From positions 101,835 through 165,834 of the forward strand of contig JADKAZ010000006.1 in the NCBI GenBank assembly GCA_016719015.1: DNA of 64,000 nt. Reading direction: 5' to 3'. Below the pieces are notes generated by a model. That model was not told the origin of the DNA. It was given only the letters and a program-made list of their open reading frames with translations, and ran no database searches. Both the position numbers and the translations under genes were made by a program. Numbering within the stretch: position 1 is the stretch's first letter; every line of letters starts with the position of its first letter. The stretch comes from Chitinophagaceae bacterium. GTDB taxonomy: Bacteria; Bacteroidota; Bacteroidia; Chitinophagales; Chitinophagaceae. Positions 1,947-49,732 of this stretch are shown here, piece by piece.

Positions 1947-4337
1947 ATGCAATTCGGAAACTTACTTTTTGATGAATCGCTGTTCAACAGCCGCCTTTGC
2001 TTTTCACCGTTAGTAAAAGCATTAAAGAAAAACATTGCCGAGGGTAACCCTGGTATGAAAAAACTTTATGGTCATGTAGTGCAGGAGTTTGAATCCTATC
2101 CGGAACTGATGAACACTATTTCCGATCTCGATATCCTGCTCCCTCACTCAGAACTGATTGAAGAATTACTATCTGCCGTTTTTCCTCCAACGACAGCTAA
2201 CTTTATGTATGGTGTGTCTTTACCCTTCAAACACCAGGCTGTATATGCTTCGCCCCGATTTAAATCAATGCTGAAACCTGGCTCTAATGAAATAAATGTA
2301 CCTAACGGACAACCGGGAACCAATCTTAGCGAGGAAAAACTTCAGTTTGCTTACGGTCTGATATTAAAAAAATACCTGGGTGTCAATAGCCCCGAATCAT
2401 CAAGGTCTATTCATCCCTACCCCGATAAGGAAACCGGGCTTACCCGTTACCTCGAATTACGTATTGATGCCCGGTTTATCGATGTCAATCCTATGGATGA
2501 AATGCCCCAACTGCCAGAAAGCATTTTAAATCAACAGACCAATAATATCATGACAATGGCAGAGCTGATGGAAAAAATACCATTAGAAAAATTCGTCTTT
2601 GAAGGTGTTTCTGTACTTCGGGTAAATGATGTAACCGAACAAGAGGTAATCAACCAGATTAAAAACCGGTTGTTGGATATCAACGCTTTTTCTGATGCAG
2701 CTGTTTACACAGAACTGGAAACCTATATCCAAAGTCTAATTGGTATAAAGGATTTAACCATTGGCATCACTCCTTTTTTTAAGATTAACAACCACTACGT
2801 TTATTCTGATTTACATAATAACAATAGTATCCTGTTCCGGCATTTTCATTCCTCTTCCGAGAAAGATGAAATAAGTGATTATTGTAAACTGCTGTTTCGT
2901 GACAGTGACCAGCCCCTTTTATTCGAAACACTGAACGAACAGTCGCTGAGTGATGTACAATGTTTGCAATATTATCATCTCGAAGGTGCCAGAAGCTTAA
3001 TTATTTGCCCGTTGAAAAATAAAAGTGGGATTATTGGTATGCTCGAGGTAATGTCCACTAAAAGCAAGCAGCTGATACCAGGATATATAAGCAAAATAGA
3101 ACCTGCTATTCCATTATTCACACTCGGTTGTGAAAAAAGCCTGGAGGACCTTAATAATGAAGTGGACCGGGTTATAAAGAAAAAATTTACAGCTGTACAA
3201 CCAGCAGTAGAGTGGAAATTTACTGAAGCCGCATTAAACTACATCGTAAAGAAGCATGAAAAGGAAGATGTAAAGATTGATCGCATTGCCCTTAATGATG
3301 TACATCCTTTATATGGCGCTATTGATATACGCAATTCTTCCACCGCCAGGTCCCATGCCATACAATTAGATATTGTAGAGCAACTCGAACTGGCGCAAAA
3401 AGTGATTAAAAAGGCACAGGCAACTATGCCATTCCCTTTATTACAGGAAATAGAATTTAAAATTGATAAATTCATTATTTCTGCTTCGGATGTATTGCAA
3501 TCCGGCGAAGAACTGAGTATACAGGACTTTTTACAGGGACAGGTAGTGGGAATGTTTAATCATTTGCACAATACCGAACCTTCAATGAAAAACGAAATTG
3601 AACATTATTTTTCAGCCCTTGATCCGCAAATCGGGATGCTGTATCACCACCGCAAAGAGTATGAAGAAAGTGTATCACGGATAAATGATACCCTGGCCCG
3701 TTATATTGACAAAGAACAGATTGCAGCCCAAAAAGTATATCCGCATTATTTTGAGCGGTATGTAACGGATGGGCTGGAGTTTAATATTTATATGGGACAG
3801 GCCATTTCGCCCCGTAAAAAATTTGATGAAATATACCTGCGAAACTTAAAAATGTGGCAGCTAACTGTACTTACAAAAGCTGCAAGGGTTACGCATGAAT
3901 TAGAGAAGGAGCTTAGCCATCCACTGCGAACCACACAATTAATACTATCGCATGGACAGACACTTTCTATTCTATTCCGTACAGAAGAAAGGAAATTTGA
4001 TGTGGATGGAGCTTATAATATCCGCTATGAAATTGTGAAAAAAAGAATTGACAAAGCCCACATAAAAAATACTAATGAGCGGTTAACACAACCTGGCAAA
4101 ATTGCTATTGTATATTCCCAATCAAAAGATGCAGCAGAGTATACCGAGTATATTGAGTTTTTGCAAAATAAAAAATTGCTGAAGCCCGGTATCGAAAATC
4201 ATGACCTCGAAGAATTGCAGGGAGTCGTTGGTCTTAAAGCACTACGGGTAGATGTTAACTTCGACGATCTGCCGCAAGGAGAAAAAACAGTGACCCTTTC
4301 AAACACCACTTCTGAACAATTGATTGGTGGTAAATAA
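1947..4337 (+). CDS. GAF-domain protein with putative cryptic class III cyclase-like C-terminus
   Basis: GAF-like segment (SLIICPLKNKSGIIGMLEV) followed by DIRNSS, YVTDG, FDVDGAYN, QPGKIAI and ELQG motifs. Confidence 0.75.
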   Translation: MQFGNLLFDESLFNSRLCFSPLVKALKKNIAEGNPGMKKLYGHVVQEFESYPELMNTISDLDILLPHSELIEELLSAVFPPTTANFMYGVSLPFKHQAVYASPRFKSMLKPGSNEINVPNGQPGTNLSEEKLQFAYGLILKKYLGVNSPESSRSIHPYPDKETGLTRYLELRIDARFIDVNPMDEMPQLPESILNQQTNNIMTMAELMEKIPLEKFVFEGVSVLRVNDVTEQEVINQIKNRLLDINAFSDAAVYTELETYIQSLIGIKDLTIGITPFFKINNHYVYSDLHNNNSILFRHFHSSSEKDEISDYCKLLFRDSDQPLLFETLNEQSLSDVQCLQYYHLEGARSLIICPLKNKSGIIGMLEVMSTKSKQLIPGYISKIEPAIPLFTLGCEKSLEDLNNEVDRVIKKKFTAVQPAVEWKFTEAALNYIVKKHEKEDVKIDRIALNDVHPLYGAIDIRNSSTARSHAIQLDIVEQLELAQKVIKKAQATMPFPLLQEIEFKIDKFIISASDVLQSGEELSIQDFLQGQVVGMFNHLHNTEPSMKNEIEHYFSALDPQIGMLYHHRKEYEESVSRINDTLARYIDKEQIAAQKVYPHYFERYVTDGLEFNIYMGQAISPRKKFDEIYLRNLKMWQLTVLTKAARVTHELEKELSHPLRTTQLILSHGQTLSILFRTEERKFDVDGAYNIRYEIVKKRIDKAHIKNTNERLTQPGKIAIVYSQSKDAAEYTEYIEFLQNKKLLKPGIENHDLEELQGVVGLKALRVDVNFDDLPQGEKTVTLSNTTSEQLIGGK

Positions 4338-4360
4338 CCTCCATTTTTGATTAAAAAAAT

Positions 4361-4386
4361 AAAGCCAGCTCTTTCGAACTGGCTTT
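4361..4386. terminator. Bidirectional terminator between convergent genes
   Basis: AAAGCCAG-N10-CTGGCTTT. Confidence 0.7.
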
Positions 4387-4412
4387 ATAATTATTATTAT
4401 GGAAAGGAAATA

Positions 4413-7001
4413 TTAGAATCTCCAACCCAAACTTACCAATGGTATTTTATCTTCTTTAGAGATAGCATACGAAGCAGTAATTAACAACCGGCGGAGTGGT
4501 GAAAACCAGATACCACCTCCGTAACCGCTGAAGAATTTTTTGTCGTTATCCTCATCTACCCATACTCTTCCTGCATCAATAAAAGCAATAATACCAAACG
4601 CAGCAGGGAAAAGATAGGTTTTGAAATTCGCTAAGCGAAGGCGCATTTCAGCCTGGTTATAGAATTTGGACTTGCCGGCAAATCTTTCTCTTCTAAAACC
4701 TCTTAAGTTATCATCTGAGCCAAGATATTGAGCATGGAAAAACTCGAATCCTTCACCCAGTGTAATACCCCCACCAGTGCGGTTTGCAAATGTCAGGCGG
4801 TCAGGTATCAGGTTAAAGTAAAAAGCAAAATCACTGTTGATCTGTGTCACTTTATCATAGCTGTTATCACCCAATCCCTTAAGTGCTTTAACAGTACTTA
4901 CCCAGTTAATACCACTCTCCGGCAGTATTTTATTATCCCTTGAATCAACGATCAAAGAAAGCCTTGCACCAACATAGGATTGTCTTTCAAAAATAGTGGC
5001 AGGATTCAGGCCGGCAGCCACAGTGTTCAATACCACATTTCTTACCGCATTCAATTTTTCATCTTTGTCCATGCTATACCACTGGAAGGTGGGGCCAAAA
5101 GTCAGCATCACTTTATCGCTGAACCGCTGACGTATTTGTAATGAAACATCGCCCAAGTCATAACGAATTCTGTAATACCTGAATCTTCTTGAATTGACAC
5201 CTCCCGTGTTAGTGCCGATATTTTTATCATACACACTGTTCACCCCGTAGCCAAAGAAATTGGTAGTATTATTCGGGCCTTTATATTCAACATCGGTTAA
5301 CAGGTCAGTCTTATCTCCCAACGCTGAAATAAATTCATTATTATACCGGAGATTTACAGCTTTTGTAGAAAAAGCATACGTCCCTTTGAACTGATGTAAA
5401 GTCTTGTAAGGTACTTTACGGAAGCCATGGCGGATGTATTTGAATGTTGGCCCGATAGATACTCCATCATCCGGATTGAACCCCAGTGTCAGAAAAATTG
5501 ACTGGAACGGATACTTGTAAGAAAGTCTGTCAAATTTATTGACAGCACTATCGTTAGACATTTTGGTGGTAAAGCGGCCGGTAATTTTATTTCCACCGTC
5601 CAGCTTATCATAAATTATTGCACCAGACTGTTTGGAGCCGGGATTTTCAAAGACATCTTCTCCGCCACCACCAATCAGTCTCACCTTTATTTTATCATTA
5701 TCGCCATGCATTACAAATTTGTCCTCTCCGTCCATTCCATAAATTCTTAACTCCTTAGTCACTAAAGGGAAAAATTTTCTTTCATACATTTTAGTACTTT
5801 GTCCTCCGTCTTTATCTATTTTATAAACCTGTACCAAGGCAGTGCCATCACTGTTACGGGTAATATCATACAGCTCTTTTTTATCACTTCCTGTTATACT
5901 TACGGTTTGCGAAATGAAACGATAATACTCCATAACCTCAGCAACCAGGTTATTACGACGGGCTTTTAAGGTTTCAGCAATTTTTCCGGCAGAGATTGAA
6001 CGAATTTCATGTGGTTGCTGAGCCATAGCCCTGTCAATCACCTCATCCGTCATTTGGGAAACAAGTTTTTCAGCTGTAGTTTTCCAGTCTTCTTCGGTAA
6101 GTTGGGTTAAGAAAAATCTATCAAGGTTACGGGCTGCAAAGTTGAAACGGCTGATGCTCTTTGCCGCCGGTTTAAATCCTTCCAACTGCGGAACTAATGA
6201 ACGGCCCTTAATTAATCCAGGTAATATGCCCTGGTTGATGTAGAAAGCCTGGTCACGGTCTTTTGCTATGGGATAAAAAATTTTGCCTTTGCCATTCGGG
6301 CTGTCATAAGCACCCCATATCCACTGGTCTTCGTGACGATCCAGATCCATTACAAACATATCAAGCACCCTGATTTTCAATAGGGCCAGCTGGTCAACAT
6401 CGTTATCGTTATCTTTTTCTAACTTGTCCGCCACTTCTTCTGAATCCCAACCCTTTTTTGTAGAATCAGGCAGCCTTTCTTCAAAAAGGGCCAGCATATT
6501 GGCAAAATCCTCCCGGTACTCACCAAGTTTAGGATCATCGGCAATATGAACAAGTTTTACATCACCATGTGGTATACCTGCAGCTTTTGCGAGTACATTT
6601 ACTGATAATGCAGCATACGGATATGATGCAGAAACACCATCGGATACAAGATCTGCAGCCGCATCGCTCTGCAAATCACCGGGCAATGTCTTACTGGTAA
6701 TAAATTTTGTTATGGAACGAAGTGTGTATTGCCTTCCGGAGGGGTCTTCTACCCTTAGCGATTTGGTTTGCTTACCACCACCTCTTTTAACGGGGGTTAA
6801 CCCTCCGTGAGATGTTGACAATTTTAAAACGGGTGCTTTTACGGGAGTATTCCATTCCGTACGGTAATTAGCACCCATCCAAGAGGTCCTGCTCCTGGAT
6901 GTACTGAAATTCCCTCCCTTGGAGGCTACCGAATCAGTCTGGGCATTACCTTGGGTTATGGCAATAAAAAAAGATACAAAAAAAACAAAAAGCAGTCTCA
7001 T
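4413..7001 (-). CDS. Omp85 (BamA/TamA-like) barrel protein with N-terminal atypical kinase-like domain
   Basis: Signal peptide; GGGKQTKSL, DLDRHEDQW and DRDQAF motifs; GGxGxD repeats; LRGFRRERF loop-6 motif; C-terminal GWRF. Confidence 0.8.
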   Translation of the reverse strand: MRLLFVFFVSFFIAITQGNAQTDSVASKGGNFSTSRSRTSWMGANYRTEWNTPVKAPVLKLSTSHGGLTPVKRGGGKQTKSLRVEDPSGRQYTLRSITKFITSKTLPGDLQSDAAADLVSDGVSASYPYAALSVNVLAKAAGIPHGDVKLVHIADDPKLGEYREDFANMLALFEERLPDSTKKGWDSEEVADKLEKDNDNDVDQLALLKIRVLDMFVMDLDRHEDQWIWGAYDSPNGKGKIFYPIAKDRDQAFYINQGILPGLIKGRSLVPQLEGFKPAAKSISRFNFAARNLDRFFLTQLTEEDWKTTAEKLVSQMTDEVIDRAMAQQPHEIRSISAGKIAETLKARRNNLVAEVMEYYRFISQTVSITGSDKKELYDITRNSDGTALVQVYKIDKDGGQSTKMYERKFFPLVTKELRIYGMDGEDKFVMHGDNDKIKVRLIGGGGEDVFENPGSKQSGAIIYDKLDGGNKITGRFTTKMSNDSAVNKFDRLSYKYPFQSIFLTLGFNPDDGVSIGPTFKYIRHGFRKVPYKTLHQFKGTYAFSTKAVNLRYNNEFISALGDKTDLLTDVEYKGPNNTTNFFGYGVNSVYDKNIGTNTGGVNSRRFRYYRIRYDLGDVSLQIRQRFSDKVMLTFGPTFQWYSMDKDEKLNAVRNVVLNTVAAGLNPATIFERQSYVGARLSLIVDSRDNKILPESGINWVSTVKALKGLGDNSYDKVTQINSDFAFYFNLIPDRLTFANRTGGGITLGEGFEFFHAQYLGSDDNLRGFRRERFAGKSKFYNQAEMRLRLANFKTYLFPAAFGIIAFIDAGRVWVDEDNDKKFFSGYGGGIWFSPLRRLLITASYAISKEDKIPLVSLGWRF

Positions 7002-7345
7002 GGTTGCAGGTTTAATTGATTAAATAGTATCCGGGGCAGTAACTCCCGGCGGCAAAAGATACAATTTTTTGAAAATTACACAAATAATAACATATCTGTA
7101 AAAATTTTGAAGGTAAAATGAACCAGCCGAGTCTAATCATGTTTTAGTGCTAAGCATATTATTCTCTTTACATTCGCATATTTTTTACGCTGTATGATAT
7201 TCCAGAGAAAGTTTTATGTAAATTGAAAACTTTCTTTGGTAGGTGAATATCTCACCACCTTAAAATAGGTTGTTGTGGTTTTACAATTTTAAATTACTGG
7301 TGAGGAAGTTGTGCTTTAGCCAGGTAGTCTTATTAACGGGAGGTA

Positions 7346-10300
7346 ATGAAAAAATATATTGTTCTGATTAGTGGGTTGTTCTTGTTGAATCTGACACTTA
7401 AAGCCCAGGAAGATACAATCATTCAGCGTATTGTGCTTATTGGCGATGCCGGGCAACTGACCAATGGCATCCACCCCGTTGTTGACGCTGTTAGAAATAA
7501 TATCAAATTAGATAAAAAAACTACTGTTGTATATCTCGGAGACAACCTTTACAAAGTTGGATTACCGGATGACCAGTCAGCAGCTTATAAAGCATCAAGA
7601 GCTGTACTTGATTCACAACTTTCTGTAGCCGATGGCACAGGCGCCAAGGTTTATATGATACCCGGCAACCATGACTGGGATAACGGCCGTCGGGGTGGTT
7701 ACGATGCTATTATTCGTCAGCAGTTATATGTTGATTTTATAAATAAGCGTAATGTCAAATTTCTGCCGGAAGATGGTTGTCCCGGACCGGTAGAAGTAAG
7801 CCTGAGCAATGATGTTACACTGATAATATTCGACAGTCAGTGGTGGATTCACCCGTTTGATAAACCGGAAATTGAATCTGATTGCGCCTGCAAAACAAAA
7901 GATGAGCTTGTATCAAAAATCGGAGACATCGCCGCCCGCAATTCAAAAAAATTAGTCCTGCTGGCCTCTCACCATCCCTTTAAAAGTAACGGGATGCATG
8001 GTGGTTTTTATACATTTAAGCAGCATATCTTTCCGTTAACAGATATGAAAAAAAATTTGTACATACCATTACCGGTAATAGGTTCCATTTACCCGATAGC
8101 CAGAAGCGTTTTTGGAACGCCGCAGGATTTAAAACATCCTAACTATGCTAATATGGTGCAGGAGATAACCAAAGTTGTAAAACCTTCACCCTATGTTGTT
8201 TTTGTTTCCGGGCATGATCATAACCTGCAACATATTAAAGAGGATGGACTTAATTACATCGTAAGCGGCGGCGGTTGTAAGCAGAACAGGACATCGCAAG
8301 CAAGCAATAGCCTTTATAATTCTTCCAACACCGGTTTCTCCGTAATGGAGGTATCCAAAAATAAAAATGTTACTATTGATTTTTATACCGTTTCGGATAG
8401 CGGTGTAGCTACAAAAACATATACCAACACTCTATTCAACTTTAACAAGCTGCCTGACGAAGCCCTGGATACAAATGCTCAAATCGTTGATGACCCTTTC
8501 TTAAAATATAAAGACACTTTTACCATTGCCGCCAGTAAAAATTTTCCGCTGATAAAAGGAATGAAGAAATTTTTTATGGGTCAGAATTACCGGGCTGAAT
8601 GGTCTACACCGGTAAACATGAAAGTCTTCAATATTTCAACTGAAAAAGGCGGTATGAAGGCCGTGGGTGTCGGTGGAGGTAATCAAACAAAATCCTTGCA
8701 ACTGGTAGATAAAAAAGGGAAGGAGTGGGTGCTTCGCAGTATGAATAAAAACCCCTCCAAAGCCATTCCTGAGGCATTCCGGGGCTCTTTTGCAGAGGAT
8801 TTGGTGGCTGAACTCAGTTCCGCTTCTCATCCTTACGGTGCACTTGCATTTCCTGTGTTGGCAAAATCATTGGATTTAACCGTTGCAAAGCCTGAATTAT
8901 TTTTTGTTCCCGACGATCCTGCTTTAGGATTTTGGAGGCCACTGTTTGCCAATAATGTTTGTATGCTGGAGGAAAAACATGCCCCACCGGATGGAAGTGA
9001 TACAAAAACAACTGCTAAGGTCTTTAATAAAATGCTGGATGAAAATGACCACCTTCCGGACCAGCCTATTGTATTAAAGGCAAGACTATTAGATATTATT
9101 ACCGGCGATTTTGACAGGCATTTTGATCAATGGAGATGGGGAACTGTTGATACAGGTAAAGGAAAAATTTATTACCCCATACCAAGGGACAGGGACCAGG
9201 CTTTCTTTTACTCTGATGGTGCCATATTAAAAGCGGTAAGTGACGGAACCTTACCTTTCCTCAAAGGTTTCAGAAAAGATATTCCAAAAGTGAATTGGCT
9301 GGGTTACACAGCGAGAGATTTTGACCGTATCTTTTTGACAGACCTTGATCAGGGCGACTGGGAAAAAACAATAGCTGAAGTGCAACAAAAAATCAGCGAC
9401 TCGGTAATCAGGGCAGCAGTAAAAAAAATGCCGTCTGAAATTTTCCCTATCCGGGGTGAAACGATTATCAAAAAAATGATCAGCCGCCGGGACTTGCTCC
9501 CAAAGGAAGCAATGTCTTATTACAAGTTTATTTCAAAAAAAGTAAACGTAATGGGCAGTAACCAACGGGAATATTTTAAAGTAAGTAATTACGGTGAAGG
9601 TTTACAGGTAAAAGTATATGCCCGGTCAAAAGGGAATGACACCAATTTTGTGATGTATAACAGAATATTCAACCCCTCTGTTACCCGTGAGATAAGATTA
9701 TATGGAATGAATGATGATGATCTTTTTGAAATAGAAGAAAATGCAAAATCACGGATCAAGATCCGCATTATAGGCGGAAAGGGTAATGATACATTTGATA
9801 TCCGTGGCCAAACAGAAGCGTTGTTATATGATTTAAAAACAGATGGCAATTTTATAAAGAATAGCAGCCATGCAAAAAATCGTTTCTCACTCGACCCTCC
9901 CGTCAACGATAAAAATGTACTTGGCTTTAATTATAACACAACCAAAGTACCCCTGATTAACCTGCATTACAATTCGGATGATGGTCTCCTGGTGGGTGCT
10001 GGTATTGCAAGACGAACCTATGGCTTCCGCAACCTACCTTATGCATCAGACCAAAAATTTGGTATTTTATATGCACCCAACCGTAAGGCCTTTCAACTTA
10101 ATTACCGGGGAGAGTTTAACCATATTACCCGTACTACAGACCTTATATTAAAAGGGAATTTTTCAAACCCGGCATTAAGAAACTTTACAGGTCTTACTAA
10201 TAATCCACAGGTTGATAAAAACAGGAATTTCAATTATTACCAGACCCGTTTCCGGTCATTGGAGCTGGAAGCCTTAGTACGGAAACGTTTTTTTGAAAAA

Positions 10301-11002
10301 TTACACCTGATGATCGGCCCTTATTTTTATCACTACAATAATAAGTATAGTGATAATGCAGGGTATGTGCTGGGCAAGTACCGGGAATTACAACTTGATT
10401 CCGCAGATATTTTTAGCAAAAAGAATTATGCCGGAGGTAAGCTGGCACTTTTAGTAGACAACCGCAATAAAGAATTTTTCCCTACCCGTGGATTATATTG
10501 GTATACGGAAGTTACAGGTGCTACAGGTATTTCCAAAGGCAGTGATGGGTATGTAAAGTATACAACCGACATGGCGATTTATGCCAGCTTCAGGGATCCG
10601 GCAAACCTGGTAGCCATATTGAAATTTGGTGGCGGACGTATTTTCAGTAAAAATTTTGAGTACTTCCAGGCATTAAGCATTGGAGCTAATAGTAACCTGA
10701 ATGGATTCCGGAAAAACAGATTTTCCGGCAATTCAACACTTTATACCGGTATTGAGTTAAAAATAAAATTGGCTGATGTTAACTCCTTTATTTTACCCGG
10801 ATCGTTCGGCATCACTGGTTTTTATGATCTTGGCCGTGTATGGGTGAAAGGGGAACAATCCGGTAAATGGCATGGAGCATTTGGCGGAGGTCTTTATTAC
10901 ATGCCTTTTAACATATTTGCCATTAATGCTACGGCCGGATTTTCTGATGGTGAAAAAATGTTGAACTTCACCCTTGGTACAAAGATTAATCTCACTTATT
11001 GA
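7346..11002 (+). CDS. Metallophosphoesterase + kinase-like + Omp85 barrel fusion protein
   Basis: GDAG, GDNLY, GNHD, SHHP and GHDH motifs; DFDRHFDQW; LNGFRKNRF; C-terminal aromatic residue; paralog of 4413-7001. Confidence 0.85.
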   Translation: MKKYIVLISGLFLLNLTLKAQEDTIIQRIVLIGDAGQLTNGIHPVVDAVRNNIKLDKKTTVVYLGDNLYKVGLPDDQSAAYKASRAVLDSQLSVADGTGAKVYMIPGNHDWDNGRRGGYDAIIRQQLYVDFINKRNVKFLPEDGCPGPVEVSLSNDVTLIIFDSQWWIHPFDKPEIESDCACKTKDELVSKIGDIAARNSKKLVLLASHHPFKSNGMHGGFYTFKQHIFPLTDMKKNLYIPLPVIGSIYPIARSVFGTPQDLKHPNYANMVQEITKVVKPSPYVVFVSGHDHNLQHIKEDGLNYIVSGGGCKQNRTSQASNSLYNSSNTGFSVMEVSKNKNVTIDFYTVSDSGVATKTYTNTLFNFNKLPDEALDTNAQIVDDPFLKYKDTFTIAASKNFPLIKGMKKFFMGQNYRAEWSTPVNMKVFNISTEKGGMKAVGVGGGNQTKSLQLVDKKGKEWVLRSMNKNPSKAIPEAFRGSFAEDLVAELSSASHPYGALAFPVLAKSLDLTVAKPELFFVPDDPALGFWRPLFANNVCMLEEKHAPPDGSDTKTTAKVFNKMLDENDHLPDQPIVLKARLLDIITGDFDRHFDQWRWGTVDTGKGKIYYPIPRDRDQAFFYSDGAILKAVSDGTLPFLKGFRKDIPKVNWLGYTARDFDRIFLTDLDQGDWEKTIAEVQQKISDSVIRAAVKKMPSEIFPIRGETIIKKMISRRDLLPKEAMSYYKFISKKVNVMGSNQREYFKVSNYGEGLQVKVYARSKGNDTNFVMYNRIFNPSVTREIRLYGMNDDDLFEIEENAKSRIKIRIIGGKGNDTFDIRGQTEALLYDLKTDGNFIKNSSHAKNRFSLDPPVNDKNVLGFNYNTTKVPLINLHYNSDDGLLVGAGIARRTYGFRNLPYASDQKFGILYAPNRKAFQLNYRGEFNHITRTTDLILKGNFSNPALRNFTGLTNNPQVDKNRNFNYYQTRFRSLELEALVRKRFFEKLHLMIGPYFYHYNNKYSDNAGYVLGKYRELQLDSADIFSKKNYAGGKLALLVDNRNKEFFPTRGLYWYTEVTGATGISKGSDGYVKYTTDMAIYASFRDPANLVAILKFGGGRIFSKNFEYFQALSIGANSNLNGFRKNRFSGNSTLYTGIELKIKLADVNSFILPGSFGITGFYDLGRVWVKGEQSGKWHGAFGGGLYYMPFNIFAINATAGFSDGEKMLNFTLGTKINLTY

Positions 11003-11069
11003 TACGGCATGATAATTACAGTATAAACTGTAAAAAGGCTAATTCTTCCCTTACGAAAGCATTCAAAAA

Positions 11070-12173
11070 ATGAAGCCCTCACATATTGCATTACCCAGAC
11101 GTTCTGCCGTAAAAAAAAATGAATTAAAACGCATTTTGGCAATTGCTATAGCATGGACAGTTATCGATTTCCTCATTTTTATTATCCGGTTTGCCACAGA
11201 TAATTATGCCCCTAAATATGAATCAACCCATGCCGGATCGCTGAAAGCAGTTTTTCTCCGGGAACTAAATGTCTTCATATTTAGTTTTATAATCGGCTAC
11301 TTTCTTATTATTCTTTTAAGAAATTTACTGAATGATAAATCGCCCTGGTTAAATCTTCTTATCAAAACATTACTACTTGTCGTTGTGGCCATTGCCATGA
11401 ATTTTTTTATTTACTTTACCTATAGCCTGGTTTTTGAAGGTAAATCTGTCGGGGATGCCTTCTATAAGTTTGTAGAAAATACATTTCGCAGAAAATGGCT
11501 GTTGGAAAAAATGCCGGAATGGGTATTATTATTTATATTAACACAGCTTACCTTAGAAATTAATCAAAAATATTCACAAGGTGTTTTTTTAAATATCATT
11601 GTAGGCAAGTATCTCCAGCCAAGAAATGAAAAGAGAATCATTCTTTTTATTGACCTTAAAAATTCAACCCCCATTGCAGAAAAACTTGGGCATACAGAAT
11701 ATTTTAAATTTATCCGAGATGTTATTTATTGCCTCGCAGCGGGGATTGCCGAATATGACGGACGGGTATATCAGTATGTAGGGGATGAAATTGTGGCCTG
11801 GTGGCCCCACACAGAGCAGAATGCAAAAAAATGTGTCAATTCTCTTATCGCTGCAAGAAAGATTTTTAACCATAATGCCGAACATTTTAAACGGGGCTAT
11901 GATATTATTCCGGAATACAAAGTCGGCATCCATTCGGGTAATGTAACCGTAGGCCAGGTAGGAATTGCAAAAAAAGATTTAGTAATCAGCGGCGATACTA
12001 TAAATACGGCAGCCCGTATCAGAAGTGCCTGTACTGAGCTCAACCAAAAGTATCTTGTATCCAAAGAATTTATTACACTACTCAACATGAAAGATTGGCA
12101 AACTGAAAGTGTGGGTCTGGTAGACTTAAAAGGGAAAAATGAGGACCTTGAATTATTTACATTAAAAATTTAA
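11070..12173 (+). CDS. Membrane-anchored class III adenylate/guanylate-type cyclase
   Basis: About 4 N-terminal TM helices; FIDLKNST, YVGDE, VGIHSG, GDTINTAAR and DLKGK motifs. Confidence 0.9.
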   Translation: MKPSHIALPRRSAVKKNELKRILAIAIAWTVIDFLIFIIRFATDNYAPKYESTHAGSLKAVFLRELNVFIFSFIIGYFLIILLRNLLNDKSPWLNLLIKTLLLVVVAIAMNFFIYFTYSLVFEGKSVGDAFYKFVENTFRRKWLLEKMPEWVLLFILTQLTLEINQKYSQGVFLNIIVGKYLQPRNEKRIILFIDLKNSTPIAEKLGHTEYFKFIRDVIYCLAAGIAEYDGRVYQYVGDEIVAWWPHTEQNAKKCVNSLIAARKIFNHNAEHFKRGYDIIPEYKVGIHSGNVTVGQVGIAKKDLVISGDTINTAARIRSACTELNQKYLVSKEFITLLNMKDWQTESVGLVDLKGKNEDLELFTLKI

Positions 12174-12198
12174 TCTATCTTACCATGTCAAACCCTAC

Positions 12199-12885
12199 AT
12201 GAAGCGTATTAATTTTTGGTTCAAAAGAAAGATAATTATACAGTGGCTTCTCGCTTCTGCTTTACTGCTTTCAGTACTTGTGGTGTGGCTGGTTTTTTTT
12301 TCTGAAAGAAACTATTTAGATCAAAAAATTTTTTCTCTGATTGAACCGCATAGGTCCGAAATCCGTACCCGTTTGATGCTTGCTGTTTCATTCCTTGGTA
12401 ATCATAAGTTTTTAATACCTGCCAATCTTTTGCTGATCACTATTTTTTTATTTTCAAAAAATAAATGGGAAGCTGTACAAGTGGCTGCTGTTTCATTAAG
12501 CAGTCTACTCTTTATGTCGCTTCTCAAAAATTCATTTCGTCGTTCCCGGCCTGATAATCCACTGGTAGATGGAATTACCAATTTTAGTTTCCCAAGCGGT
12601 CATGCATTTATGAGTGCTGCTTTTTACGGCTTGCTCATCTGGTGGGCCGCAACCTATATTAAAAATGGATGGCAACGGAGGCTGGTTATTCTTTTTCTGA
12701 TGATGCTGATAATTATTATAAGCTTCAGCCGCATATATCTCAGGGTTCATTACGCTTCAGACGTAGTTGTTGGGTTGTGTATCGGATTTGTCTGCCTAAG
12801 CTTATCACTCGCCATCTTGCAACGATTACAGAAAAAGAAGAAACTAAAAAAAAGGCGTTGGCTAATTTTTATAAACAAACTTTAG
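12199..12885 (+). CDS. PAP2-family membrane phosphatase
   Basis: KxxxxRxRP, FPSGH and SRIYLxVHYxxD motifs. Confidence 0.9.
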   Translation: MKRINFWFKRKIIIQWLLASALLLSVLVVWLVFFSERNYLDQKIFSLIEPHRSEIRTRLMLAVSFLGNHKFLIPANLLLITIFLFSKNKWEAVQVAAVSLSSLLFMSLLKNSFRRSRPDNPLVDGITNFSFPSGHAFMSAAFYGLLIWWAATYIKNGWQRRLVILFLMMLIIIISFSRIYLRVHYASDVVVGLCIGFVCLSLSLAILQRLQKKKKLKKRRWLIFINKL

Positions 12886-13037
12886 AATAGTCACAATTCC
12901 TTTACCACCTTCATTAGGCAAACCCGTTTTCAAAGACTTCCTTCCGGATGTCAGGCACTACTCAGCTTGTGTAGGTTTTGCTTGAGCTTATTAGTTCATT
13001 GATAATATAATAACCCGTAATCCGGCCTTAAAGAAAC

Positions 13038-13901
13038 CTAAGGTTTATATACAAAACGAAGGATGGTAGACCTGGCAGTAACTCCCTCATTAGAAATATA
13101 CATATCACCGTTAGATTTAAATGTCAATCCTTCTGGCTGTGGAAACATCTTTTTGCCGAGTTCAAATACTGATTCTACTTTTCCATTAAGATCAGCGATA
13201 ACCAGTAAATTGGCTGCTGATGAAATAATAAATAATTTTTTCAGTATTGGATGAATGCCCGCTGCTGATGGTTGAAGTTTAGATGTTTTATGTGGTGAAA
13301 GTTTCTCCACTTCCGCGGCATCAATGGTATAAACAGGGTTAACATCAAAGCCTGTTGAGTCTGGATAAAAAGCAAATGCACTGACAGATTTCTTATCATC
13401 CATAGCACAGTTCTTGCAAATAATAATCAATGCTTTGCGGGATGTATCGGCATACATTGTTTCAAAGTCATTGGTACCAGAAATACCGATTTTACCGGCT
13501 TCCACCCCCCTGATACCTCCGGCACTATCTCTTATTAATTTAGTGATCATACCATCGCTACGCAAAACATATGGCACTCCTTTGTATATCGCAATATCTT
13601 CGTAGTCTCCTTTAGCACCAAAAGAATACTCGCCACCCGGTTTGATGGCCTTTGTTTCTCTATCAAGTAAAAATAATTTACCCGACTCATCATAATGGGC
13701 CAGAAACTCATCCCTGTCTCTATCCCAGGCCAGCCCTGATATTTCTTTCAACTTCAGATCAAGTTTATGCGTTTGAACTTCTGAAAAATTATAGTGAGGA
13801 GGTGATTTAATGATCTTCGTTTTTTGCTTACAAGCCATCGTCATCAAAACACATAAAGTCAGCAGGATAATTAAGTTTACCCGAAAATTTAAAAATCTCA
13901 T
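13038..13901 (-). CDS. SdiA-regulated-domain (beta-propeller-like) lipoprotein
   Basis: Lipobox MAC; LKEISGL, DYEDI and QPEGLTF motifs; ATG at 13901 preferred over 13928. Confidence 0.7.
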   Translation of the reverse strand: MRFLNFRVNLIILLTLCVLMTMACKQKTKIIKSPPHYNFSEVQTHKLDLKLKEISGLAWDRDRDEFLAHYDESGKLFLLDRETKAIKPGGEYSFGAKGDYEDIAIYKGVPYVLRSDGMITKLIRDSAGGIRGVEAGKIGISGTNDFETMYADTSRKALIIICKNCAMDDKKSVSAFAFYPDSTGFDVNPVYTIDAAEVEKLSPHKTSKLQPSAAGIHPILKKLFIISSAANLLVIADLNGKVESVFELGKKMFPQPEGLTFKSNGDMYISNEGVTARSTILRFVYKP

Positions 13902-13944
13902 TCTTCTTATTTTGTTTAAATTTATCAAAAGTTATCTTTATAGC

Positions 13945-15242
13945 ATGTCCGACAATCAAATACTAGCGTTACAGGAAGCCCAGGCTCTCGTAAATGATCT
14001 ATTAACAAACAAACTTAGTAAAAATATTAAGTTTCATACACTTCAGCACACTCAGGAAGTGGTAGCTGCCTGCCAAAGTTTAGCAGATTATCACCAATTA
14101 CCCGAAGACGACCGTTTTGCTCTTATTCTGGCGGCCTGGTTTCATGATACCGGCTACACTGGCGGTGAGGCAAAGGATCATGAAGCATTAAGCATAAAAC
14201 TGGCTACTGATTTTTTAACTATTCATTCTGCCAGTACAGAAGTGAGAGACAAAGTAATTGGTTGCATCAATGCCACCCGTATTCCTCAAAGCCCTGACAA
14301 CCTTCTCGAAAAAATTATTTGTGATGCAGATTTATTTCACCTGGGCACCGATGATTTTAAAGAGAAAAGCCGCCTGTTGAGAGAAGAAATAAAAGAATTT
14401 GGAGAAATAGATATATCAAAAAAAGATTGGAGAAAAACTAATATCCGCTTCCTGGAAGGACATAAATACTTTACTGACTATGGTAAAGAAAAATTACAAC
14501 CAATAAAAGACCAGCACCTGGCTGAACTAAGACAAAAAGATAAAAATACCGATGAAATGAAACCTGCTAAAACCGAAAAGATTGAAAAAACAGATAAAGC
14601 GGATAAAAAAGATAAACCAAAGGAAAAGGAAAGTCCGCCATACTAACTCCCGAGGCCGAAGAAGCTAAACGGAAAAAAGATAAAGAAAAAGAAGCGGACA
14701 GAAGTATTGCAACGGTGTTCCGGATTATGGCTAACAACCATATGGCACTTAGCCAGATGGCAGACTCCAAAGCCAATATACTTATATCGGTGAATGCCAT
14801 TATTCTTTCTATTCTTATCGGCAATCTGATTGATAAACTGCACACTGACCCGAACCTGCAAATTCCGCTTGCATTGATTGCCGTGGTTTGTGTGGCATCA
14901 ATAGTATTTGGTATACTGGCTACCCGGCCCAATGTTTCCAGTGGCAAATTTTCGCATGAAGATATTGCCAGCAAACGTACCAATCTGTTATTCTTTGGTA
15001 ATTTTCACAACGCAAGCCTGGAAGATTATAGCTGGGGAATGACAGAAATGCTGGGCGATAAAAACTATATGAACTCCAGCATGATCAAAGACAATTATTT
15101 TCTCGGAGTGGTACTTGCCAAAAAATACAAATATCTCCGTATTGCGTATAATATTTTCATGTATGGGCTTATTTTATCCATACTGGCTTTTGTGGTTGCG
15201 TCTATGCTACCCGAAGCTACCGAGGTCTATACGGCTGGATAA
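13945..15242 (+). CDS. HD-domain + PycTM/DUF5706 fusion, split by one apparent 1-bp deletion near 14630
   Basis: HTLQHT, WFHDTG and DADLFHLG motifs; adding one A at 14630-14632 joins it in frame to FRIMANNHMALSQMADSKANILISVN, LLFFGNF and KKYKYLRIAY. Confidence 0.8.
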
Positions 15243-16199: not shown

Positions 16200-17636
16200 T
16201 TATTCCTTAATACTATTAGATTCTTCGTAATGCCTGATTTTATTATACAGGGTTTTCCGGTCAATTTTTAAAGCTTCTGCAGCTTTGGTTTTATTAAACT
16301 TTACCTGCTTCAGCACATTCATAATCATTTCATATTCTGCCTGGGAGGCAGCCACCTTAAGATCAGCAGGTGGTTGCTTATGTGCATCAAATGCATTTTC
16401 CTGGTTTATTACAGGTGGAGGTGCAGAAATGGGTTTTAATGGATTCCCGATTATTTCCCACGGAAGGACATTTGTTGTAATTTTTCCGCTTGCTGCCAGG
16501 AGTCCTGCCCTCCTTATAACATTGCGGAGTTCCCGTAAGTTGCCCGGCCAGTCATAGTTTAAAAACAGCTGCATTACTTCTTCATCAAACCCTTCGAATT
16601 TTTTATTTAATTCAGCACAGGTTTTCTTTAGAAAAAAATCAGCAAACATTGCAATGTCTTCCTTTCTTTCCCGCAAGGGCGGTATGGATATTGAAAACTC
16701 ATTAAAGCGGTGGTATAAATCTTCCCTGAATTTTCCATTGCGATAAGCCTCCTGGAGATTTTCATTGGAAGCAACGATTACTCTTGTATCGGTATCGATG
16801 TCTTTATTACTGCCTACTCTTTTAAATTTACGTTCCTGGATTACTCTTAATAAAGTAGCCTGTACATCAAGTGGCAGGTTAGATACTTCATCTAAAAAGA
16901 GAGTACCCCCGTCTGCCACTTCAAATATTCCTTCTTTATCAGTTAATGCACCGGTAAACGACCCTTTGACATGACCAAACAATTCACTGGCAGCAAGTTC
17001 TCTCGATATAGTACCGCAGTCAACCGCAATAAAAGGCTTATTGCTTCGGTTACTGTTTTGATGAATCGCTTTGGCCATCACCTCTTTACCTGTTCCGCTT
17101 TCGCCGTACAGTATTACACTGTAATTGGTGGGTGCCACCAGCTCAATTTGATTGTATAATTCTATTGTGCGGGGTGAAATACCTAAAAGTACTTCCTCCG
17201 GATCAATAGTAAAGTATTTCCCCGCCGAGCTTTGCGGAATTGAAATATTAGTAGCATCTGCTTTAATTAATGGGGGAGAATCATCTAACCCTTTGTTGAT
17301 CAGATTAATTAATTCTTCTGGAATTAAAGGTTTAGTAATGTAATCAAAAGCACCATAACGCATTACTTCTACCGCCATCTTCACATCGGAATAACCGGTA
17401 ATAATAATGACTATCACATCAGGATTAATACTCTTGATCTTCTGCAACACTTTTCTTCCATCCATATCCCCCAGCCGGAAATCACATAGTACCAGATCAA
17501 ATTTGCTCTCGTTGAATTTCTCTAATCCTTTGTGTCCGGTGTGAGCTGTTTCCGTTTCAAAACCCTTACGTTGCAAGAATTGACTGAGCAACTGGCACAT
17601 ATCCAAATCATCATCTATAATCAGTATTCTCCTCAT
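16200..17636 (-). CDS. Sigma54-dependent response regulator (NtrC-type bEBP)
   Basis: REC domain, GESGTGKE, ELFGHVKGSFTGA, WPGNLREL, Fis-type HTH. Confidence 0.95.
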   Translation of the reverse strand: MRRILIIDDDLDMCQLLSQFLQRKGFETETAHTGHKGLEKFNESKFDLVLCDFRLGDMDGRKVLQKIKSINPDVIVIIITGYSDVKMAVEVMRYGAFDYITKPLIPEELINLINKGLDDSPPLIKADATNISIPQSSAGKYFTIDPEEVLLGISPRTIELYNQIELVAPTNYSVILYGESGTGKEVMAKAIHQNSNRSNKPFIAVDCGTISRELAASELFGHVKGSFTGALTDKEGIFEVADGGTLFLDEVSNLPLDVQATLLRVIQERKFKRVGSNKDIDTDTRVIVASNENLQEAYRNGKFREDLYHRFNEFSISIPPLRERKEDIAMFADFFLKKTCAELNKKFEGFDEEVMQLFLNYDWPGNLRELRNVIRRAGLLAASGKITTNVLPWEIIGNPLKPISAPPPVINQENAFDAHKQPPADLKVAASQAEYEMIMNVLKQVKFNKTKAAEALKIDRKTLYNKIRHYEESNSIKE

Positions 17637-17816
17637 ATGAGCTTATTTAGGCAAAATTATCGAAAAGGTTAACCAAACTGCTTTTTGATTACTATTAGCA
17701 GTTTTCTGATTGGGCAGTAGAAAAATTCAACCTGTTTGAGGAAGAAAATCAACCATCCTGATCATCTTTAAACAAATGAGATGCCGATATCTGGTCACAT
17801 CTCGCTTTAATTGCAT

Positions 17817-17831
17817 TGGCAAGTCTTTTGT
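17817..17831 (+). promoter_or_regulatory. Sigma54-like -24/-12 box
   Basis: TGGCAAG-TCTT-TTGT upstream of the single-domain response regulator. Confidence 0.45.
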
Positions 17832-17892
17832 GAATAATAAAACCATGTTAACTCCGGTATCCTTTAGTGATTATCCCCCAATCATAGCCTTC

Positions 17893-18246
17893 ATGAAAAA
17901 AATATTAATTGTGGATGATGAAGAAGATATCTGTTACTTTTTAAGTCGAAGCCTCTCCAAAAGAGGCTTTATAACAGATACCTCTTATTCTTTATCCCAG
18001 GCTGAAAAACAGCTGGAAGTATCAACCCCTGACATATTATTGCTGGATAATCATTTACCGGATGGAAAAGGGATTGACTTTGTCCCGAAGATTAATCAAA
18101 AATATCCGGCGTTAAAGGTAATCATGATAACGGCACATGATAGTCCGGAAGACAGATTAAAGGCTCACAATAATGGAATTCAATATTTTTTATCCAAACC
18201 CTTCAGCCTTGCAACAATCAACCAGATAATTGATTCAGTAGCCTAA
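17893..18246 (+). CDS. Single-domain response regulator
   Basis: ILIVDDE, LLDNHLPDG, ITAH, KPF. Confidence 0.9.
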   Translation: MKKILIVDDEEDICYFLSRSLSKRGFITDTSYSLSQAEKQLEVSTPDILLLDNHLPDGKGIDFVPKINQKYPALKVIMITAHDSPEDRLKAHNNGIQYFLSKPFSLATINQIIDSVA

Positions 18247-27178: not shown

Positions 27179-29413
<2,235 letters not shown>

Positions 29414-49642: not shown

Positions 49643-49714
49643 GGTCCCGTAGTTCAATGGATAGAATAGAAGTTTCCTAAACTTTTGATACAGGTTCGAT
49701 TCCTGTCGGGACTA
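49643..49714 (+). tRNA. tRNA-Arg(CCT)
   Basis: Acceptor stem GGTCCCG/CGGGACT, anticodon arm GAAGT-TTCCTAA-ACTTT, T arm ACAGG-TTCGATT-CCTGT; CCA not encoded. Confidence 0.95.
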
Positions 49715-49732
49715 CAAATTTTATAAAAGTGT

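Follow-up and report, generated by a model that had tools for sequence, protein, structure and literature searches.

A kinase-fold domain family carried on POTRA-less Omp85 barrel proteins of Bacteroidota, often together with a purple-acid-phosphatase-type domain

In a stretch of 64,000 nucleotides from a Chitinophagaceae bacterium (contig JADKAZ010000006.1; hereafter the window), we analyzed two adjacent open reading frames (ORFs), ORF A and ORF B, whose products combine an Omp85 outer membrane barrel with a kinase-like domain. We read both proteins as barrel-anchored envelope enzymes, kinase-like in nature and accompanied by a phosphatase in ORF B, and give this reading a probability of about 0.55; the architecture and the fold assignment by themselves we hold with high confidence. 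Overall, A and B point to phosphate chemistry outside the cytoplasm. The new element is a previously unrecognised kinase-fold family on enzyme-bearing, POTRA-less Omp85 proteins; the phosphatase-barrel architecture had already been catalogued. In a literature search, we found no account of an Omp85 protein that bears a kinase-like domain.

ORF A (4413-7001, minus strand; 862 amino acids, aa) and ORF B (7346-11002, plus strand; 1218 aa) are transcribed divergently, with a 344-bp spacer between them, at exactly the coordinates given in an earlier reading of this DNA (the original prediction), which had described them as a divergent paralog pair. BLASTP aligned the two products with 35% identity over 826 aa (E=4e-157), from residue 41 of A and residue 410 of B to the end of both proteins. 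On this alignment A and B are paralogs, and a chance resemblance is ruled out. A, the short form, consists of a signal peptide, the kinase-like domain, an all-beta stalk and the Omp85 barrel. B, the long form, possesses in addition a purple acid phosphatase (PAP)-type domain between the signal peptide and the kinase-like domain. As seen in the translations, Sec signal peptides of typical kind open both proteins; that of A covers aa 1-20 (6942-7001, minus strand), with a predicted cleavage site after ...TQGNA and before Q. The motifs that the original prediction had attributed to both proteins (MGxNYRxEWxTPV, GGGxQTKSL, DxDRHxDQW, DRDQAF, a GGxGxD-like motif and the loop-6 motif) were all recovered in the two translations. 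They read MGANYRTEWNTPV (aa 42-54), GGGKQTKSL (aa 74-82), DLDRHEDQW (aa 219-227), DRDQAF (aa 248-253), IGGGGEDVF and NLRGFR in A, and MGQNYRAEWSTPV, GGGNQTKSL, DFDRHFDQW (aa 588-596; 9107-9133), DRDQAF (aa 615-620; 9188-9205), IGGKGNDTF and NLNGFR in B.

The domain in the middle of these proteins (~330 aa) corresponds to aa 41-372 of A (5886-6881, minus strand) and aa 409-738 of B (8570-9559, plus strand), and is covered by no Pfam or NCBIfam model. A search with this domain recovered 94 relatives, chiefly fragments out of Chitinophagaceae metagenome bins, which carry the names 'hypothetical protein', 'metallophosphoesterase' or 'BamA/TamA family outer membrane protein' at their source. Comparison of 37 members with Pfam and NCBIfam yielded scattered sub-threshold matches only (HipA_C/PF07804 at E=0.03 and CotH at E=0.31, in one member each), and the PI3/PI4-kinase model PF00454 did not match A, B or any of these 37 members. 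A 37-sequence alignment of the kinase-like domain (A1) was used as input for AlphaFold2, and the resulting model of the A domain reached a predicted local distance difference test score (pLDDT) of 88.3 and a predicted template modelling score (pTM) of 0.89. This model was compared with the Protein Data Bank (PDB) using Foldseek. The best matches were CtkA from Helicobacter pylori (1.2e-5, probability 1.0) and human PI4KII-alpha (5e-5), followed by HipA (5.9e-4) and Rio2 (6.3e-4). Kinases or kinase-fold proteins made up nearly all of the best 50 PDB matches. The predicted model thus supports a bilobal protein-kinase-like fold for the middle domain, as had been proposed.

Searches at the sequence level were in line with a distinct family. 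The domain profile, run against PDB sequences, placed CtkA at E=0.033 and aligned DMFVMD..FDRHEDQW to DMFVAD..FDRHNGNW of CtkA, the DRD loop lying next to the IFDCGS loop of the latter. A single-sequence search of A against the same sequences returned only noise (caspase fragments, E>0.5). With hhalign, A1 reached a probability of 0.3% against HipA, whose profile was shallow (E. coli K-12 hipA and homologues, all at least 73% identical). By these searches, the middle domain belongs neither to HipA nor to the PI3/PI4-kinases and represents a new sequence family of predicted kinase fold. The proposed likeness to DRHxxN-type kinase loops therefore stands in part: the loop aligns to the FDRH of CtkA, but a Gln takes the place of the Asn, and membership of the HipA or PI3/PI4-kinase families did not follow from sequence.

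To describe the putative catalytic site, we used a conservation set of 83 family members, from 80 genome loci and the window, with 30-50% mutual identity (numbering of A). Twenty-one positions were invariant in 83/83 members: G43, R47, W50, G74, G75, R95, K99, P128, E174, R211, D214, D219, D221, R222, Q226, D248, D250, G258, D294, W306 and P330. H223 was present in 81/83. The DRH and DRD residues, on whose conservation the original prediction depended, are thus conserved, and this pattern is common to short and long forms. In the Gly-rich loop GGGKQTKSL of A (6756-6782, minus strand), Q78, T79, S81 and L82 were each kept in at least 95% of the members, in addition to the two invariant Gly. The candidate catalytic-loop motif DLDRHEDQW (6321-6347, minus strand) is the one aligned to FDRHNGNW of CtkA, and the candidate metal-binding-loop motif DRDQAF (6243-6260, minus strand) occupies the DFG position. 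Taken together, the putative catalytic set comprises the Gly-rich loop (G74-G75-x-x-Q78-T79), R95/K99, E174, D221-R-H-x-x-Q226 and D248-R-D250; the roles proposed for K99, D221, Q226, D248 and D250 were assigned through the CtkA alignment and by inference. Judging from this pattern, the complete set is under strong purifying selection, and the site is 'active-looking', with the invariant Gln as its one unusual feature. In a separate observation, the 380-aa protein P0080, from a JGI metagenome contig of a GC-rich organism, carries DRRRGQW and DPD in place of DRHxDQW and DRD, suggesting that the His and the Arg of DRD are dispensable in some lineages; the Asp and Gln residues are kept.

The original prediction had overlooked the N-terminal domain of B. 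Approximately 390 additional N-terminal residues in B match PF00149, the calcineurin-like metallophosphoesterases (E=2.5e-6; 28.5 bits against a cut-off of 21.5), and the PAP-type metallophosphoesterase itself, predicted to be binuclear, covers aa 21-385 (7406-8500, plus strand), with the blocks GDAG, GDNLY, GNHDW, HHP and GHDH. The PF00149 domain was not found in A. The Metallophos_C model of purple acid phosphatases also matched the N-terminus of B, weakly, and all five PAP blocks, which supply the seven metal ligands of such phosphatases, are kept, including the Tyr of GDNxY, in the consensus of a 61-sequence family alignment. A search of PDB sequences with this domain returned GAP50 and mammalian type 5 purple acid phosphatases, and GAP50 was also the best structural match of the full-length B model (E=2e-11, Foldseek). 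B therefore shares the GDxG, GDxxY, GNHD, HHP and GHxH blocks of these enzymes; it differs from them by its fusion to a kinase-like domain and an outer membrane barrel. A pair of Cys in the phosphatase domain is near-invariant in the family alignment and counts in favor of an extracytoplasmic location. With this phosphatase, the picture becomes that of a kinase-like domain paired with a phosphatase.

Between the kinase-like domain and the barrel lies a stalk of 110-130 aa (aa 373-500 of A, 5502-5885, minus strand; aa 739-868 of B, 9560-9949, plus strand), in the place where POTRA domains would be expected. In B it shows predicted strands only and no helices, and the A stalk was delimited from the translation and from the secondary structure of its B equivalent. 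POTRA Pfam models gave no match to A or B at E<=1, and since the stalk is all-beta, without the beta-alpha-alpha-beta-beta pattern, it is not a POTRA domain, in agreement with the original prediction. The Ca-binding-like GGxGxD repeats proposed earlier were recovered as a motif but not as repeats, being one or two degenerate copies inside the stalk. The barrel follows at aa 501-862 of A (4416-5501, minus strand), with the loop-6 motif NLRGFR, a C-terminal F, 16 strands, a match to ShlB and a match to NF047779 (E=1.8e-27, below the curated cut-off). In B it occupies aa 869-1218 (9950-10999, plus strand), with NLNGFR, a C-terminal Y, 16 predicted strands and a match to PF01103 above its cut-off (E=6.3e-9).

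The AlphaFold2 model of full-length B (1198 aa without the signal peptide; pLDDT 88.3, pTM 0.83) reproduced this order. In the numbering of the model, the phosphatase occupies residues 1-345, a low-confidence linker 353-362, the kinase-like domain about 390-710, nine short beta-strands without helices 712-808, and 16 long strands 845-1192. NLNGFR sits in a long loop joining strands 11 and 12, as does loop 6 of Omp85 proteins. BamA and TamA barrels were matched at about 1e-10 by Foldseek, with template modelling scores (TM-scores) up to 0.76 (TamA). The pTM of 0.83 suggests that B would form a rigid multidomain unit. Across the family, LRG[YF] was present in 68/83 members and a C-terminal F or Y in 80/83. 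The features of the Omp85 superfamily, namely the 16-strand barrel, loop 6 and the C-terminal aromatic residue, are all found in the A/B family.

We compared A and B with the systems that they most resemble. An Omp85-'Metallo' subfamily, with a PF00149 domain and a POTRA-less Omp85 barrel, was catalogued in 2014 by Heinz & Lithgow (PMC4104836), who termed the PF00149 domain a metalloprotease, left its topology open and considered the subfamily conserved at genus level only. ORF B fits this architecture, whereas ORF A, without PF00149, does not; the ~330 aa of kinase-like domain between phosphatase and barrel are not mentioned there, and the family described here spans several orders. The original prediction had also drawn an analogy with PlpD (type Vd secretion). 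As in PlpD, an enzyme domain stands N-terminal to an Omp85-type 16-strand barrel, but the defining features failed to appear, as A and B have no patatin domain and, by Pfam, no POTRA linker, which leaves an analogy only. In the same way, the N-terminal POTRA domains of BamA/TamA insertases and TpsB transporters were not found in A and B.

Regarding kinases, CtkA and HipA are among the best structural matches; the DRHxx[N/Q]W loop aligns with that of CtkA, and the G-x-Q-x-K Gly-rich loop of A resembles VAGAQEKTAL of HipA. In contrast to these proteins, A and B show no HipA N-domain and no HipB-type neighbour, are predicted to be Sec-exported and membrane-anchored, and carry Gln for Asn. PI4KII-alpha/beta, lipid kinases of the membrane interface, form the second-best structural match (4hnd at 5e-5; 4pla, 4yc4 and 8a5x), without a match to PF00454, with 13% identity and with a TM-score of about 0.4. 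The catalytic loop of PI4KII is of the DRxxDN type. Two candidate relatives were rejected. SEAE1 of Segetibacter aerophilus (Chitinophagaceae) has a kinase fold with a lipid-kinase-like structure and is encoded beside a PAP2 gene (bioRxiv 10.64898/2026.09.18.752743); it is described as intracellular, with D216/N221/D241, as against the other numbering, the Gln for Asn and the Omp85 barrel of the Segetibacter member of the present family (L060). A metallophosphoesterase of Riemerella anatipestifer was set aside as a characterised relative, being described as an effector secreted by the type IX secretion system.

To evaluate the extent of the family, 1.84 billion representatives were searched with the profile, which returned 3,621 clusters (50% identity representatives) at E<=1e-3, 1,781 of them at E<=1e-30. 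Almost all of the best 150 clusters had a length of ~860 aa or ~1220 aa. When one genome was scanned for each species, at least 580 loci came to light, and the counts of loci, neighbours and architectures given below refer to the best 80 of these. All 80 belong to Bacteroidota (Chitinophagaceae, Mucilaginibacter, Pontibacter, Hymenobacter, Spirosoma, Larkinella, Algoriphagus, Flammeovirga, Ekhidna and others), several orders of which are represented; Bacteroidales and Flavobacteriales were absent from this set. The long architecture of B was found in 56 ORFs and the short architecture of A in 29. The divergent layout of A and B is retained only in close Chitinophagaceae relatives (L002, L004-L008). 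In a neighbour-joining tree built without support values, the short forms fall in at least two separate clades; A clusters with the short forms of close relatives beside a long form (L011), and B stands in another long-form clade. This placement in different clades, obtained by the phylogeny that the original prediction had suggested, indicates that A and B are old paralogs. A was probably derived from a long form by loss of the phosphatase, judging from the tree.

Other arrangements of the family were also observed. One locus (L011, 7866-17117) carries three copies in a row, one short and two long. A stand-alone kinase-like protein of 362 aa (P0075; L082, 5001-6089) lies in an unrelated context, beside an extracytoplasmic function (ECF) sigma factor and a fatty-acid desaturase. 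A split form is found in L030 (7863-10448), where a kinase-like gene precedes a stalk-barrel ORF, and P0080 is likewise a separate kinase-like gene, followed by a 457-aa gene. Hydrophobic, signal-like N-termini are also present on stand-alone family members.

In the mechanism that we propose, A and B would be exported by Sec and anchored in the outer membrane by their C-terminal 16-strand Omp85 barrel, and the rigid all-beta stalk, in the usual place of POTRA domains, would hold the enzymatic head. At the outer membrane, the kinase-like domains would modify an envelope component, either a protein or the head group of a lipid or glycolipid, with phosphate or with a group derived from a nucleotide, and the phosphatase of B would take such groups off. 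Free ATP is an unlikely donor; the genes of the polyphosphate kinase PPK1 and of PAP2, a lipid-pyrophosphatase-like enzyme, found among the neighbours would hint, speculatively, at polyphosphate or a pyrophosphoryl lipid. That the kinase-like domain is a catalytically active transferase seems to us slightly better than an even bet, and a lipid or glycolipid as the substrate is a tentative suggestion, less likely than not. The signal peptides and Omp85 barrels place these proteins outside the cytoplasm, as the original prediction had it. We favor, with some reserve, a periplasmic head, lying against the inner side of the outer membrane, because this is the default for Omp85 N-terminal domains, which are described as periplasmic (PMC11358297), and because A and B have no POTRA and no lumen-spanning helix. 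We further infer that the barrel acts as an anchor rather than as an insertase. The propeller lipoproteins encoded beside many family members carry basic or neutral, not acidic, residues after the lipidated Cys. In Bacteroidota, acidic residues at this position constitute the surface-export signal of lipoproteins, a rule which argues that these putative partners stay on the periplasmic side.

Several observations weigh against a barrel-anchored kinase-like enzyme. The TM-scores to PDB kinases are moderate (0.4-0.5), and the sequence links to characterised kinase families are marginal (CtkA) or absent (HipA, by hhalign). The invariant Gln (Q226) replaces the metal-binding Asn of the DRHxxN loop. 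The neighbours are mostly cytoplasmic or inner membrane proteins, tied to the barrel proteins by synteny only, even if the phosphate theme common to the conserved neighbours counts in its favor. The outer membrane has no known ATP supply, according to PMC13067283, and an ATP-dependent kinase there would be unprecedented. Finally, the split forms fit two-partner secretion as well as a periplasmic head. In another explanation, in whose favor the split forms count (the kinase-like and barrel pair of L030, and P0080 with its 457-aa neighbour), the barrel exports its own head to the surface, as in type Vd secretion, or a partner protein in the split forms. The exposed enzymes could then serve, for example, in scavenging phosphate from organic phosphorus compounds too big for the outer membrane. 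Purple acid phosphatases are typically secreted enzymes, and a phytase-like propeller and PAP2 are found among the neighbours, in agreement with such a role. Fusions of an enzyme to Omp85 with an exposed passenger are also known (PlpD, which PMC4104836 discusses). However, no POTRA and no long lumen-spanning helix is predicted ahead of strand 1, and heads of 480-850 aa, rigidly packed according to the model, are ill suited to pass through a barrel of 16 strands. The lack of an acidic surface-export signal on the partner lipoproteins, under the rule given above, also speaks against display, and the kinase-like domain has no evident part in scavenging. Surface display thus appears unlikely to us.

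The lack of a known ATP supply at the outer membrane and the replacement of Asn by Gln would also agree with a domain without catalysis. Such a pseudokinase or ligand sensor would stand in for POTRA, either offering an Omp85 insertase or translocase a platform for docking or regulation, or controlling the phosphatase allosterically. The domain does occupy the place of the POTRA docking domains of BamA and TamA, the barrel retains a functional L6 motif, and kinase folds are reused non-catalytically elsewhere, for example in SrfA-N (bioRxiv 10.64898/2026.09.18.752743). Pseudokinases, however, normally lose their catalytic residues, whereas here the residues concerned (Lys, catalytic Asp, Gln and the two Asp of DRD) do not vary across the 83 members, among them the short forms, which have no phosphatase to regulate; we therefore regard a non-catalytic module as quite unlikely. 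It is improbable, too, that the kinase fold serves a different chemistry, such as AMPylation, hydrolysis of ATP or of a phospho-substrate by way of a phospho-Asp intermediate (as in Rio2) or transfer from a non-nucleotide donor. Rio2 with its phosphoaspartate intermediate (4gyi) is among the best structural matches, the loop is surrounded by additional invariant acidic residues (D214, D219, D248, D294) that canonical kinases do not need, and PPK1 is a neighbour in 16 loci. These points are all indirect, and we know of no kinase-fold enzyme that uses polyphosphate.

Returning to the barrel-anchored kinase-like enzyme, a wider proposal would be an outer membrane phosphorylation/dephosphorylation system of environmental Bacteroidota, with an Omp85-anchored writer (A and the middle domain of B) that would phosphorylate a lipid, glycan or protein of the envelope from a donor other than cytosolic ATP, and with the B phosphatase as the eraser. 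It would be the first such pair at the outer membrane of a bacterium; we put it forward as doubtful. As neither the periplasm nor the outer membrane has a known ATP supply, extracytoplasmic phosphorylation in bacteria has hardly been explored. The present family places a kinase-fold domain with a fully conserved putative catalytic set on a barrel, often with a phosphatase, in thousands of proteins of soil, freshwater and marine Bacteroidota. An active domain would imply a phosphoryl donor and a phosphorylated envelope component that are both yet to be recognised, and would supply a function for a large Omp85 subfamily that was catalogued but never explained. With an inactive domain, the family would represent a new type of periplasmic module, carried by the Omp85 barrel instead of POTRA.

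The genes around A and B were analyzed in the window and in the related loci. The intergenic region (7002-7345) presumably holds the promoters of both ORFs; it gave generic consensus matches only. A promoter and terminator consensus scan returned counts not above those of shuffled sequences, with a hairpin at 4359-4388 (13-bp stem followed by a T run) as the sole convincing site. This hairpin, between A and a convergent 796-aa gene, is likely the terminator of A, which appears to be monocistronic. On the other side, B is directly followed on the plus strand by a class III nucleotidyl cyclase (11070-12173), which matches Pycsar cyclase models (PycC, E=1.3e-16), and by a PAP2 phosphatase (12199-12885). 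Only short gaps separate these genes, and the plus strand showed no terminator-like site from B to the cyclase; B, the cyclase and PAP2 probably constitute one operon. PADLOC, run on A and B, gave no meaningful match.

Further along, a SdiA-regulated/phytase-like beta-propeller lipoprotein (13038-13928, minus strand; PF06977, E=1.8e-8) carries the lipobox ...TMAC followed by KQKTK. Its annotated TTG start overlaps the next ORF, and the true start is probably an ATG ten codons downstream. This next ORF encodes an HD phosphohydrolase (13810-14646, plus strand) and precedes a PycTM membrane domain of the two-transmembrane (2TM) effector type (14715-15242, plus strand; PF18967, E=1.9e-34; PADLOC PycTM, E=2e-16). 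HD and PycTM form a single gene in most relatives; here they are in different frames (14560-14700), the switch lying inside an A-rich stretch that codes for a Lys/Glu-rich linker, and the split may be genuine, or else come from a frameshift or from an indel of the assembly. On the A side, the 796-aa conserved protein (1947-4337, plus strand), a recurrent neighbour, has no signal peptide, is apparently cytoplasmic, and had no Pfam, NCBIfam, PADLOC or PDB-sequence match.

Among the 80 loci, an HD-domain protein was present in 50 and fused to PycTM in 46 of these 50. The ~300-aa propeller lipoprotein occurred in 38/80 loci and was the gene immediately upstream, in the same orientation, for 26/53 long forms; by this position, it is the most likely physical partner of the long form. 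An ~800-aa protein without known domain was found in 27/80 loci, the class III cyclase in 16/80 and PAP2 in 7/80. The polyphosphate kinase PPK1, recognised by eye from the sequence, was present in 16/80 (e.g. L063, 11666-13726, and L041, 2559-4550), mostly beside HD-PycTM and the cyclase. It is absent from this window, of which positions 1947-15242 hold every other recurrent neighbour. The cyclase and PycTM share the cluster without being adjacent, and the HD-PycTM/cyclase pair keeps its synteny with the Omp85 genes in several orders. Together, the cyclase and HD-PycTM look more like a cyclic-nucleotide module with a housekeeping role than like mobile defence.

Beyond the cluster, the window encodes a sigma-54-dependent response regulator (16200-17636, minus strand) and a stand-alone receiver domain (17776-18246, plus strand); two-component genes also recur close to the family in some Cytophagales loci. 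Rfam and tRNA scans detected no RNA gene near the A/B locus, and a tRNA-Arg (CCT) at 49643-49715 (plus strand) was the only one found in the window. A catalase-peroxidase-like gene (PF00141) is located downstream of the cluster, at 27179-29404 on the minus strand.

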